Origin: Escherichia coli
GTDB taxonomy: Bacteria > Pseudomonadota > Gammaproteobacteria > Enterobacterales > Enterobacteriaceae
Reading direction: 5' to 3' (one strand)
DNA length: 3,767 bases
Assembly (NCBI RefSeq): GCF_003334815.1
Contig: NZ_QOWO01000080.1
Part shown: one piece after another, positions 1-3,767 of the stretch
Numbering within the stretch: the stretch's first letter is position 1
Layout: each line of letters begins with the position of its first letter
Notes under the pieces: generated by a model
What the model was told of the DNA's origin: nothing
The model's database searches: none
Seen by the model: only the letters and a program-made list of their open reading frames with translations
Made by a program: the position numbers and the translations under genes

Positions 1-38
1 GGGGTTCCGTGGGCATTTCTGCGATAACACACGCTAAG
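1..38. repeat. Terminal inverted repeat (tnpA-proximal end), 38 bp: GGGGTTCCGTGGGCATTTCTGCGATAACACACGCTAAG
   Basis: It has the outer GGGG and inner ACGCTAAG typical of Tn3-family 38-bp IRs (compare Tn3 GGGG...ACGTTAAG). The tnpA stop codon (minus-strand TAG, plus 34-36) sits inside the IR, as is usual for this family. Its reverse complement matches 3751-3767. Confidence 0.85.
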
Positions 39-3000
39 GAAAAGTGAAGTTCTTTGGATTGAAGCGATTAGTACGAAGTGGCCTGTATCGTTCAAGGGGA
101 TGGTCAATTTCGTTCCACAGGTAATCTCCAGTGAGCGAGATATGACCCCATGGTAGTGGTGATACACTGGACAAGAGCTCTTCCGGTATAATGATCCCCT
201 GGTTGCGAATGTAATCAACAGCCCGACTGAGATAGACCGTGTTCCACAGAATTATTGCATTAACAACAAGGTTGAGGCCCGATGCCCTGTGAGCCATTGT
301 CTCGGCAGCCCTGTTCCGGAATTCGCCCAGTTGGTGAAGAAAAATAGCGCGGGCAAGTGCATGGCGGCTTTCGCCTTTGTTGAGGATTGCGTGTGATCTG
401 CGACGTAACCGAGTGTCAAGCAACCAGTCACAGATAAAAATTGAGCGTTCAATACGTCCCATTTCACGCAGGGCCAGATTGAGCCTGTTTTGTCTCGGAG
501 ATGCTGCCAGCTTTTTCAGTATTACCGATGGTGGTACCAGACCAGCGCCGATCGAGGCCTTAAGCCGCAGAACTTCATCCCAGTGCTGTTCTATTACTTC
601 CATTTTGGCCTTTCCGGCGATCAGGGCATCAAGTGGTTTATATTCCTCTGAGGGTGAAATAACGTACAACCTGCGACTGCCGAGGTTGCGAATACGGGGT
701 ATGAGTCTGTAACCAAAAGAGTGAAACATTGAAAATGTTGTTTCAGTCGCACCGGCTGTATCGGTGGCATGCTCATGAATTACCACAGAACTTTCGTTAT
801 GAAGTAAGCCGTCAAGTACGTAGGGAGCCTCGCTTTCAGAGGCCTGAATCATTCTGGAAAAAAAGGATGCAAAACGGTTCGATAAAAAACCATAAATCGA
901 CGCGCCAGGTCGTTTGCCGTATTTGGCGTTATATTCGAGGCTGGCTTCTCCTCGTCCACCCGCAGGAAAAAACTGCCCGTCCGAGGATGACACATGCCCA
1001 TCCCCCCATATAGCAGCAAAAGGATGTTCCTGTTGCGCATCGACCAGAACTGATGTGGCAGACGCATAGGTTTCAGTGCGTAAATGACGATCCATCATTA
1101 CCATCATCTGGTGAATGGTGACACCCCGGGAACTCTGCGCCATCCGTTCTGCTCCCGCATTCGTCGCATCGGCAAGGATCGCAGCCATAAGTGCAGCTTC
1201 ATCTTCCGCCTGTTCCCCGGTGCGATAATGGGTGAAACAATCAAGAAAACTGGTCCAGCTATGAACTTCTGCCAGCAAACTGGTAATTCTGATGCGTGGT
1301 ACCAGCATGTAGAGTTTACGGCTGAGAGCCTTAATTTTGTCGCTCTCTTCTTCGCGAATCGGAGACACAGACAACCCTCTGCTGGAAAGTTCTGCATCGG
1401 GTATGGCATTCTCCGAAGCAGCTTTTGCCAGCGCTTTCAGTTTTGCGTTGAGTGTGGTGGTTCGCTCAGCCCGCCATTCAGCAAAGTTGTCCGGAATGGC
1501 AAGTCCCAGCCGGGATTCTGCCCGCATCTGCCCGAAAACATGGTGAGGAAGAAGGTAGTCCTCAAAACTACGCCAGGCCCGACTACCATCAACCCATATG
1601 TCACCTGTTTTCAGGCGTTCCCGCAAATGAACGAATACGGCGACTTCCCACGCCTGCAGATCGGTATTTTCTCCATGGATGACACGACGTCGCCATTTAT
1701 GGGACATAAAATCGAGCGGAATTTGTTTGGGTAATTTTCGGCCATGATAGAACGCCTGCAAATACCCAATCGCCAACAAAACGCTATCATCCGGGCGAAA
1801 AGCTCTGAAAGAAAAAGCGCTGAAAATGAGTCGTCCAAGCTTACGTAATGATTTTTGTCGTCCGATAAGTTCATCCAGTTCAGAACAGTGATGGGAAGAT
1901 GCCACCGAAGCTGCAGCCTCCATACTGGCAATCAAACCTTCCCAGCCGAGTGATGCTGTTATTACAGATTCAATATCAGTATTACCGTCACGTGCTGCCA
2001 GGAGAGCCCGTCCCAGCTTAATATGATCCTGAGCTACGACTTCAAGTACTTCAGCGGCTTTCAGACGACGCTCTTTCTGGCTTATCTCTGCTCTGCGCCT
2101 CGTGCTGCCAATCAATTTGCAGAACATATCAATTGCCAGATCTGTAATTGCTGCCTGCTTTTCAATAACAAAGGCTACCAGCGTGGCATGACGGCGTTCG
2201 GATGCCATTCGTTGTATTTCACGCGCATGTAAAACGCGAGAATCCCGGGCAATAATACCGTAACGGTTTACATGAATCCGTTTACGTTGCTCATCGGAGA
2301 TTGCCGCTGTTCGTAATACCTCCAGCCTGGCAATTAACCCCTTAAGATTCTTGAGTTTCACGCCTTCCGGCGCTTCAGCTATCCAGCCTAAAATGCTCTT
2401 TTCTCCGACTCGTTCGGTAAGCAACTGCTCGAGAGCGCTAATGGATGAAGGTTTCAGATCCCTGATGAGTTCCCGATAAGAAAGGCGACGGGCAGCCGCC
2501 CGGCCCGCCATTGCCAGACGGATGAGTTGTGCCGGAGCAGGGGCAAGTAACTTCTGGTCCTTCAGCTTATTGATAACTGCTCTGGTGATCGGCAGTCCTT
2601 TTTCGGTGGTTGCTGCTTCGCGTGTAGCCGCGATAATGAGCATTCTGTAATCGCTACTCCGGACGGAACGAAGCTCCAAAGCCGAAACTATTTCGCGGGC
2701 ATGTTCCCGGCGGGTTTCCTCACGTTGTGCGTAAAGTGTAAAAACAGCAGGGTCAATATCCAGTTGTTCCGCAACAACGGTGATAACAGCCTCCGGGGGA
2801 ATCTCTCCTGCACGCAGTGTACGACCGAGATCACGGACAAGTGCAAGCTGAATGGCAAAACCCAGACGGTTATGAGATCGACGATGAGTTCTGGCGAATG
2901 CAATATCCTCGCAGGAGAGCGAAAACCGGGGAAGTGCATCCTCATAAAGTTCAGGTAATCCAAAAAGCGTATCGTACGATTTAGCGTCGAGAAATGACAT
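34..3000 (-). CDS. tnpA: Tn3-family DDE transposase TnpA, 988 aa
   Basis: A single uninterrupted 2967-nt ORF ending inside the terminal IR. The N-terminus carries the NRLGFAIQL motif typical of Tn3-family TnpA. Candidate DDE triad: D674 (SSSDGQ, nt 979-981), D747 (HEHATDTAG, nt 760-762), E877 (NKGES, nt 370-372), with spacing 73/130 aa close to what I recall for Tn4430 TnpA. The ATG at 3000-2998 overlaps the tnpR 3' end. Confidence 0.95.
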   Translation of the reverse strand: MSFLDAKSYDTLFGLPELYEDALPRFSLSCEDIAFARTHRRSHNRLGFAIQLALVRDLGRTLRAGEIPPEAVITVVAEQLDIDPAVFTLYAQREETRREHAREIVSALELRSVRSSDYRMLIIAATREAATTEKGLPITRAVINKLKDQKLLAPAPAQLIRLAMAGRAAARRLSYRELIRDLKPSSISALEQLLTERVGEKSILGWIAEAPEGVKLKNLKGLIARLEVLRTAAISDEQRKRIHVNRYGIIARDSRVLHAREIQRMASERRHATLVAFVIEKQAAITDLAIDMFCKLIGSTRRRAEISQKERRLKAAEVLEVVAQDHIKLGRALLAARDGNTDIESVITASLGWEGLIASMEAAASVASSHHCSELDELIGRQKSLRKLGRLIFSAFSFRAFRPDDSVLLAIGYLQAFYHGRKLPKQIPLDFMSHKWRRRVIHGENTDLQAWEVAVFVHLRERLKTGDIWVDGSRAWRSFEDYLLPHHVFGQMRAESRLGLAIPDNFAEWRAERTTTLNAKLKALAKAASENAIPDAELSSRGLSVSPIREEESDKIKALSRKLYMLVPRIRITSLLAEVHSWTSFLDCFTHYRTGEQAEDEAALMAAILADATNAGAERMAQSSRGVTIHQMMVMMDRHLRTETYASATSVLVDAQQEHPFAAIWGDGHVSSSDGQFFPAGGRGEASLEYNAKYGKRPGASIYGFLSNRFASFFSRMIQASESEAPYVLDGLLHNESSVVIHEHATDTAGATETTFSMFHSFGYRLIPRIRNLGSRRLYVISPSEEYKPLDALIAGKAKMEVIEQHWDEVLRLKASIGAGLVPPSVILKKLAASPRQNRLNLALREMGRIERSIFICDWLLDTRLRRRSHAILNKGESRHALARAIFLHQLGEFRNRAAETMAHRASGLNLVVNAIILWNTVYLSRAVDYIRNQGIIIPEELLSSVSPLPWGHISLTGDYLWNEIDHPLERYRPLRTNRFNPKNFTFP

Positions 3001-3604
3001 TGCTCTGATCCGTTGTCAGATTACGCCCCCCAGGTCCGGCCCAGCCAATTCGTCGTAGAGTATCGGTGAGCGTTGAGCGTGGCACACTGAATGCGCGACA
3101 TACTGACGCTTTACTGGCACCTCCTTCCAGAGCTGCGAGGATTTGATCAACCTTTTCAGCATCTATCGCCGGTGGCCTTCCGCCTTTTCTCCCCCGCCGG
3201 AGAGCAGCAGCCAGACCAGCATTAACGCGTTCTGTGATAAGTGTTCTTTCGTACTCCGCGAGCGTGCCAAAAAGGTTAAAGAGGAACGAGCCGTGTGGCG
3301 TTGTTGTATCAATAGATTCAGTCAATGATCGGAAAGCAATACCACGAATTTTCAGGTCTTCAATAATTCGGAGCAAATGTGAGAGTGAACGACCAAGTCG
3401 ATCCAGTTTCCAGACTATCAGTACATCACCTTCGCGAAGTTCAGCGAGACAGGACTTAAGTCCCGGGCGATTATCACGAGCACCTGAAGCATGATCCTGA
3501 TGTAAATGCCGGGGATCCACTCCAGCAGCAATCAACGCATCACGCTGCAAAGAAACTGACTGACGTTCATCATTGCTTGATACCCGCATATAACCAATCA
3601 ACAT
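2981..3604 (-). CDS. tnpR: Serine recombinase (transposon resolvase TnpR) of the Gin/Hin/Pin invertase-like type, 207 aa from the ATG at 3604. The ORF track extends to a TTG at 3613, which is probably an overcall.
   Basis: The N-terminus MLIGYMRVSSND...LQRDAL closely matches Gin (MLIGYVRVSTNDQ...LQRNAL), placing the catalytic Ser at residue 9 (nt 3580-3578). Conserved blocks VWKLDRLGRS, FRSLTESIDTT and ERV-AGLAAA-RGR-GGRP are present, followed by a C-terminal HTH (RSTLTDTLRR). An AAGG Shine-Dalgarno sits about 10 nt upstream of the ATG at 3604. The stop is TAA at 2983-2981. Confidence 0.9.
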   Translation of the reverse strand: MLIGYMRVSSNDERQSVSLQRDALIAAGVDPRHLHQDHASGARDNRPGLKSCLAELREGDVLIVWKLDRLGRSLSHLLRIIEDLKIRGIAFRSLTESIDTTTPHGSFLFNLFGTLAEYERTLITERVNAGLAAALRRGRKGGRPPAIDAEKVDQILAALEGGASKASVCRAFSVPRSTLTDTLRRIGWAGPGGRNLTTDQSNVISRR

Positions 3605-3750
3605 GTACGACAAACCTTAAAATTGAAGTTTCCGTACAGTTTCTCATTCCGACAGGGTTTGTCACGCAAAAAATCACAGATTTATGGATTCAATTTTCTT
3701 CAACTGCAGGACCTGACGGAAAACAAGTGATTTCCGTCAGGGAGAAATCG
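3605..3750. promoter_or_regulatory. Putative res (resolution) site with embedded tnpR promoter/operator
   Basis: A ~146-bp non-coding region lies between the tnpR start and the right IR, where res sits in Tn21-type elements. It contains a perfect dyad at 3713-3740 and repeated TTCCG(N)CAG half-site-like motifs at 3630-3638 and 3649-3657. No clear sigma70 -35/-10 pair could be assigned. Confidence 0.55.
3713..3740. repeat. Perfect 28-bp dyad CTGACGGAAA-acaagtga-TTTCCGTCAG; candidate res subsite I (crossover site)
   Basis: 10-bp perfect inverted arms flank an 8-bp spacer. The 28-bp length equals a typical serine-resolvase site I. It lies at the tnpR-distal end of the res region, where site I sits in Tn21-type res. 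Confidence 0.5.
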
Positions 3751-3767
3751 CTTAGCGGGTGTTATCG
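3751..3767. repeat. Terminal inverted repeat (res-proximal end), truncated by the window; the inner 17 bp are visible
   Basis: The reverse complement of 3751-3767 is CGATAACACCCGCTAAG, against IR positions 22-38 CGATAACACACGCTAAG (16/17 identical). Orientation and position are right for the opposite transposon end. Confidence 0.8.

Follow-up and report, generated by a model that had tools for sequence, protein, structure and literature searches.

The question raised by this locus is whether it holds an intact and recently active transposon or the decayed remains of one. The stretch of DNA analysed here (the window, 3,767 nt) corresponds to bases 1-3767 of a cargo-free Tn3-family transposon of 3,788 bp, the far end of which was found from copies with identical DNA sequence. 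The element is arranged in the order left inverted repeat (IRL), tnpA, tnpR, a putative res region and right inverted repeat (IRR), with tnpA and tnpR both on the minus strand, and between its ends it contains tnpR-tnpA and the putative res region with no cargo. The window starts at the outermost base of IRL and stops 21 nt short of the tip of IRR. IRL (GGGGTTCCGTGGGCATTTCTGCGATAACACACGCTAAG, positions 1-38) forms a 38-nt left boundary in every full copy retrieved, and the stop codon of tnpA (TAG, 34-36, minus strand) falls within it. The inner 17 nt of IRR occupy positions 3751-3767 and complement bases 22-38 in inverted orientation with a single mismatch (16/17), the outer 21 nt lying beyond the window. 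In the DNA-identical copies the full IRR, read inwards, is GGGGCTCCGTGGGAATTTCTGCGATAACACCCGCTAAG, and the outer 21 nt close the element on the plus strand as ...CAGAAATTCCCACGGAGCCCC. With the complete right end taken from these window-identical copies, the two 38-bp repeats match at 35 of 38 positions. A preliminary description of this DNA had called the repeats near-identical; the window itself contains the right repeat only as the 17-nt part given above. The repeats have the form found in the Tn3 family, with a length of ~38 bp, a GGGG start and a TAAG-type inner motif. The window also contains a number of internal repeats (D1-D7 and I2-I4); each of these is short, has two copies that match at 76-88% and is taken to be due to chance.

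The tnpA gene (34-3000, minus strand) encodes a 988-aa DDE transposase of the Tn3 family. Its reading frame runs from an ATG start through 988 codons with no internal stop, in agreement with the unbroken frame reported in the preliminary description, and the same frame is annotated by RefSeq in near-identical copies. Antisense ORFs of up to 216 aa are present within tnpA and are taken to be by-products of the long coding frame. Residues 3-164 (2509-2994, minus strand) match the DUF4158 domain (PF13700, E 8e-41), and residues 575-960 (121-1278, minus strand) match the DDE_Tnp_Tn3 region, comprising the RNase H-like domain and scaffold (PF01526, E 2.3e-134), with the match spanning model positions 2-389 of 389. 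The NCBIfam equivalog for Tn3 transposases, NF033527, was matched with 922 bits (cut-off 500). This combination of an N-terminal DUF4158 domain and a C-terminal DDE_Tnp_Tn3 region in a protein of ~1,000 aa (988 aa here) is the layout of Tn3-family TnpA proteins, and by every sequence criterion tested the element is a member of that family. In the Tn4430 TnpA, the corresponding N-terminal part of the protein holds the DNA-binding domains (PMC9579193), and a DNA-binding role for the N-terminal part of the TnpA described here is predicted by homology.

A phmmer search of this TnpA against all PDB chains detected Tn4430 TnpA only (7QD4, 7QD5, 7QD6 and 7QD8; E = 4.6e-152), with residues 12-977 aligned to residues 15-981. 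The relationship is not a chance one, given the phmmer E-value of 4.6e-152, the Pfam E-value of 2e-134 and the 922-bit score to NF033527. The structure paper names D679, D751 and E881 as the DDE triad of Tn4430 TnpA (PMC9579193), and both that paper and the alignment bear out the triad numbers given in the preliminary description. The register of the Tn4430 numbering was verified at T750 (directly before D751), R899 and R901, all of which were found at the indices cited in the same paper (PMC9579193). Opposite D679 stands D674 (codon GAC, 979-981, minus strand), the first catalytic Asp, in the motif SSSDGQ (residues 671-676); opposite D751 stands D747 (GAT, 760-762, minus strand), the second catalytic Asp, in HATDTAG (residues 744-750); and opposite E881 stands E877 (GAA, 370-372, minus strand), the catalytic Glu, in NKGES (residues 874-878). 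These are the residues and motifs that had been proposed from the sequence, and the interval 370-981 runs exactly from the codon of E877 through that of D674. The triad is spaced D-73-D-130-E in this protein and D-72-D-130-E in Tn4430, as near as had been suggested. Further towards the C terminus, R895 and R897 (codons at 310-318, minus strand) correspond to R899 and R901 of Tn4430, two residues in contact with the transposon end (PMC9579193).

Conservation of these residues was assessed in an alignment of 29 full-length homologues, ranging from 38 to 90% identity, together with the catalytic region of Tn4430. The columns of D674 and D747 contain Asp in 31/31 sequences, and the column of E877 contains Glu in all 30 of the sequences that have the position, one homologue of 955 aa being deleted there. 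R895 is kept in 29/30 homologues and R897 in 30/30. The TnpA of Tn5403, at 34.5% identity, has D, D and E in these columns as well. The protein thus carries Asp, Asp and Glu at the positions of the triad in a characterised relative, and neither misalignment nor substitution of the triad, on which the earlier reading had been made to depend, was found: the three residues lie in the catalytic columns and are invariant in the homologues having the position. By homology, D674, D747 and E877 would constitute the metal-binding triad of an RNase H-like domain, and the fold uniting them is likewise predicted from homology to the solved structure.

The tnpR gene (2981-3604, minus strand) is co-directional with tnpA, overlaps the start of tnpA by 20 nt, and encodes a serine recombinase (resolvase) of 207 aa in an intact reading frame. 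The ATG at 3604 (MLIGYMRVSS...) is the start used by RefSeq and is conserved in relatives; an alternative TTG start at 3613, which gives the 210-codon frame of the ORF list, is unlikely to be used. TnpR matches the Pfam Resolvase domain, and matches Gin with an E-value of 6e-50 and the gamma-delta resolvase with an E-value of 5e-26; Ser9, in a VSS motif, is its putative active-site Ser. A simple consensus scan, which is uninformative in this setting, found no sigma-70-like promoter upstream of tnpR. The 146 bp between tnpR and the right inverted repeat (3605-3750, minus strand) contain a 30-bp palindrome at 3712-3741, CCTGACGGAAA-N8-TTTCCGTCAGG, and two further motifs resembling half-sites at 3630-3639 and 3647-3655. 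Across the whole element there are four occurrences of the motif CTG(N)NCGGAA, and all of them fall inside 3630-3740. Relatives with TnpA identity as low as 70% still have the palindrome and the distal block. We infer that the 3605-3750 block is the res region. The state of these components bears on the notion of a decaying relic, in which the tnpA frame would have stayed open by chance or for want of elapsed time. Derivatives of this kind do exist elsewhere, in the form of fragments with DUF4158 only, a copy interrupted by IS100 and a derivative with a 394-bp internal deletion, but in this element the 988 codons are free of stops, the nearly invariant family residues that were examined are all retained in TnpA, and tnpA, tnpR and the putative res region are all intact, leaving decay as an explanation with next to no probability.

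Activity requires an intact triad but is not guaranteed by one, and footprints of movement were therefore sought. Records of the exact TnpA protein come from at least 24 contigs. Of eight loci retrieved, five match the window at every one of its 3,767 bases, and a sixth differs by 1 nt. The window-identical copies are 3,788 bp in length and occupy four distinct sites, where they are flanked by the duplications TAATA, TCGTA and ATATT (5 bp) and TGGTAT (6 bp). Target-site duplications of 5 bp were thus found at three of the four sites of the identical allele, and also at 12 of 15 copies of a sister allele; the copy in the window comes without flanks.

This sister allele is separated from the window sequence by five fixed SNPs, which include the TnpA changes R270C and N933S. 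It is present at full length in 62 plasmid records and in 34 of 5,426 complete E. coli genomes, some of which have up to 9 matching places, and chromosomal copies are included. The perfect 5-bp duplications in 12 of the 15 copies checked differ from one another and are AT-rich. The chance of a 5-bp flank match is ~1/1000 per copy, so that this pattern is a signature of Tn3-type transposition. Genes split by sister-allele copies include traI, bcsB, a colicin gene and mbeA. Within a strain the copies are identical and have private SNPs in common, which is what spread inside one genome would produce. Most replicons carry one copy, even in strains with up to six element-carrying plasmids, which is compatible with target immunity and is weak evidence for it. 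No duplication was found at three sister-allele copies on IncF plasmids, which have one common left flank, or at one further copy, so that some copies are something other than a simple, fresh insertion.

The IncF-plasmid copies fit inheritance followed by rearrangement, and copies of Tn5403 are known as recombination substrates (PMC5142620). Both observations would suit a history in which the copies arose by homologous recombination, by plasmid fusion or as part of a co-inherited segment, with copy number then being uninformative on the activity of the transposase. Against such a history, most copies stop exactly at the tips of the inverted repeats and are bounded by differing, perfect 5-bp direct repeats, and copies split otherwise contiguous genes (traI, bcsB and the colicin gene), a pattern foreign to recombination; as a general account of the copies it is very improbable. 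Transposition is the reading that we retain, and it is well supported, by inference from these sites, that the element is mobile in enteric bacteria (E. coli and Salmonella) and has moved recently. The preliminary description had argued from the intact frame, triad and repeats that the element was recently active rather than decayed. The window-identical copies at four sites with target-site duplications, and the spread of the sister allele to many replicons of single strains, agree with the proposed recent activity, which is deduced from sequence.

The two coding differences between the alleles raise the matter of whether the exact copy in the window is itself functional, as its TnpA differs at two residues (R270 and N933) from all copies in complete E. 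coli genomes. An intact gene could still belong to a functionally silent allele, whether auto-inhibited, poorly expressed or hurt by R270/N933, with the window copy travelling as a passive passenger. The intrinsically low activity of Tn3-family TnpA proteins, of which Tn4430 TnpA is an example with low activity reported in vitro (PMC9579193), and the failure of the simple scan to find a promoter are in keeping with this idea. However, DNA identical to the window, and thus encoding these same residues, is found at four sites with target duplications. Moreover, R270, the state found in the window, occurs in 30/30 homologues and is the conserved state, and position 933 is freely variable, so that the window allele is not suspect on account of either residue. 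A silent allele is accordingly considered improbable, and the exact window copy is presumed to be active at present.

With high confidence, the locus can be read as nearly all of a Tn3-family transposon that encodes a full-length DDE transposase with the triad D674/D747/E877 and that would move by the standard replicative mechanism, followed by resolution by TnpR. In this process a dimer of TnpA would bind the 38-bp ends, as suggested by its homology with Tn4430 TnpA, and end binding would cause the catalytic RNase H-like domain to refold. The triad would then nick the 3' ends and join them, in a staggered fashion, to an AT-rich target. Replication by the host would be expected to produce a cointegrate and the 5-bp target duplication, and TnpR would resolve the cointegrate at res. 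The chemistry, the replicative pathway and resolution at the proposed res are all predicted for this element by its resemblance to others.

Literature searches by protein, length, inverted repeat and host strain, with ISfinder and TnCentral outside their scope, did not yield a published name, and a cluster look-up of TnpA gave the label "Tn3 family transposase" only. Public databases already contain the exact protein, whose triad, mechanism and family are textbook, and the element, an ordinary member of the Tn3 family, has already been catalogued. It is possible, if on balance somewhat doubtful, that there is more to it: a minimal Tn3-family transposon that has yet to be named and is at present spreading through the plasmids and chromosomes of E. 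coli and Salmonella from pigs and humans, with its nearest relatives outside the Enterobacterales in Rhizobiales (78-79% TnpA identity) and with a resolvase much nearer to the Gin/Hin-type DNA invertases than to the gamma-delta/Tn3 resolvases. If this is true, the element would be a convenient natural system in which to study the recruitment of an invertase-like serine recombinase to the resolution of cointegrates. Genes can be inactivated by cargo-free elements of this sort, examples here being traI, bcsB, the colicin gene and mobilisation genes. Tn3-family elements can also fuse replicons via cointegrates and supply homology for plasmid recombination, and are therefore relevant to plasmid evolution. 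The main value of the present analysis is good annotation, and little beyond.

Among known systems, the Tn3/Tn2 transposases belong to the same family at a distance, with ~25% identity to this TnpA. The alignment to a Tn3-type TnpA that was proposed in the preliminary description was made with the Tn2-type TnpA fragment adjoining blaTEM-1 in KY271404. In this fragment the two Asp residues align, in the motifs ASADG and MTDTAG, and since the fragment is truncated by IS26 before the Glu, the comparison covers the two Asp only. Tn3 itself has divergent tnpA and tnpR genes and carries bla.

An intact Tn5403 was located, guided by PMC7319535, in Klebsiella pneumoniae pKPN3-307_typeA (KY271404, 15537-19200). 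Like the element described here, Tn5403, the most familiar element of this kind in enterobacteria, is a cargo-free Tn3-family transposon of ~3.7 kb that contains only tnpA, tnpR and 38-bp inverted repeats, produces 5-bp target duplications and is found on enterobacterial plasmids; its triad is kept as D671, D744 and E874. It differs in TnpA (34.5% identity) and TnpR (32%), in its length of 3,664 bp as opposed to 3,788 bp, and in its inverted repeats, which are perfect and, beyond sharing the GGGG and TAAG ends, are unrelated to those of the present element. The tnpA and tnpR genes of Tn5403 are divergent, whereas those of the window are co-directional and overlapping. The possibility that the window is Tn5403 is ruled out by the 34.5% TnpA identity, the different inverted repeats and the different gene order.

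The TnpA of Tn4430, from Bacillus thuringiensis, is homologous over its full length, with identical domain order, the same DDE columns and R899/R901 represented as R895/R897, although identity in the catalytic region is only ~39%. Position 907 of the present TnpA is Ser, as in wild-type Tn4430 (S911), whereas the second deposited Tn4430 chain has Arg there. For the resolution of cointegrates Tn4430 relies on an irs site and TnpI, a tyrosine recombinase; in place of TnpI, the element in the window encodes a serine recombinase.

The closest relatives are unnamed 3.8-kb tnpR-tnpA elements, found on an Enterobacter plasmid (84% DNA identity), in Xenorhabdus, Serratia and Morganella (88-90% protein identity) and in Rhizobium, Ensifer and Brucella (78-79%). 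Those in Rhizobium, Ensifer and Brucella, together with a relative on an Enterobacter plasmid (P0045, P0049, P0052 and L017), have TnpA proteins that are 78-90% identical to that of the window. They resemble the present element in their co-directional tnpR-tnpA genes, a similar inverted repeat (GGGGCTCAGTGGGAATCTCTGCAATAATACCCGCTAAG) and the conserved palindrome of the putative res region. They are nonetheless distinct, species-level elements, with DNA identity of at most 84% (the Enterobacter plasmid), TnpR proteins of 201-205 aa as compared with 207 aa, and, in the Rhizobium copy, no 20-nt overlap between the two genes.

The right end of the element lies 21 nt beyond the last base of the window, so that only part of the right inverted repeat (IR) is included (bases 3751–3767); the complete length is 3,788 bp. 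In the allele carried by the window, the two IRs mismatch at 3 of 38 positions; in the common E. coli allele they do so at 2 of 38. Window 34–36, the TAG that ends tnpA, is located within the left IR, and the repeat itself therefore encodes the final 11 codons of TnpA. The two alleles also differ at two TnpA residues, both read from the minus strand: codon 270 (window 2191–2193) specifies R in the window and C in the common allele, and codon 933 (window 202–204) specifies N and S, respectively. Every copy retrieved, whether from a complete E. coli genome or from a plasmid, carries C270 together with S933. Because R270 is kept in 30 of 30 homologues, the derived residue at this position belongs to the widely spread allele.

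Three copies carried by E. coli and Salmonella IncF plasmids (L001, L003 and L016) have the same left flank, GCATACTC, and in none of the three was a 5-bp duplication present. This combination points to an insertion of some age that later underwent rearrangement or recombination between copies. Elsewhere, the copy at NZ_CP019561.1 133765–139490 is interrupted by an IS100 insertion, and at locus L021 (1–2460) another transposase gene of the Tn3 family, distinct from the first and encoding 992 aa, occupies the place of the tnpR side. A 394-bp miniature derivative was identified in the IncK2/Z plasmid pDETEC45 (NZ_CP116070.1 24593–24986), in which window positions 1–213 are fused to 3603–3788; both IRs and the res region are retained, tnpA and tnpR are gone, the left end carries a mutation at its outer tip (GGCG), and no target duplication surrounds positions 24593–24986. 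In about 160 plasmids, a stretch of ~190 bp exhibits 86% identity to window 3569–3766, covering the tnpR 5' end, res and the inner right IR, and many of these plasmid records contain it in two places. The two plasmids examined (L027 and L028, at 4501–4691) are both of the IncX1 type. This stretch looks like a relic of the end of a related transposon that has become fixed in the plasmid backbone.

Of the relatives compared (L029–L033), those whose TnpA is at least 70% identical maintain the co-directional tnpR-tnpA layout. The res region is about 59 bp shorter in the Rhizobium chromosomal copy L029 than in L030; the TnpA proteins that these two loci encode are identical. In Tn3, by contrast, tnpR is divergent from tnpA, an arrangement also found in one relative at 58% TnpA identity. 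The resolvase encoded by tnpR (window 2981–3604, minus strand) resembles the phage Mu Gin DNA invertase (PDB 4m6f; E = 6e-50, 173 bits) much more closely than it does the gamma-delta or Tn3 resolvase (E about 5e-26, 95 bits); such a Gin-like affinity is unexpected in a cointegrate resolvase of the Tn3 family.
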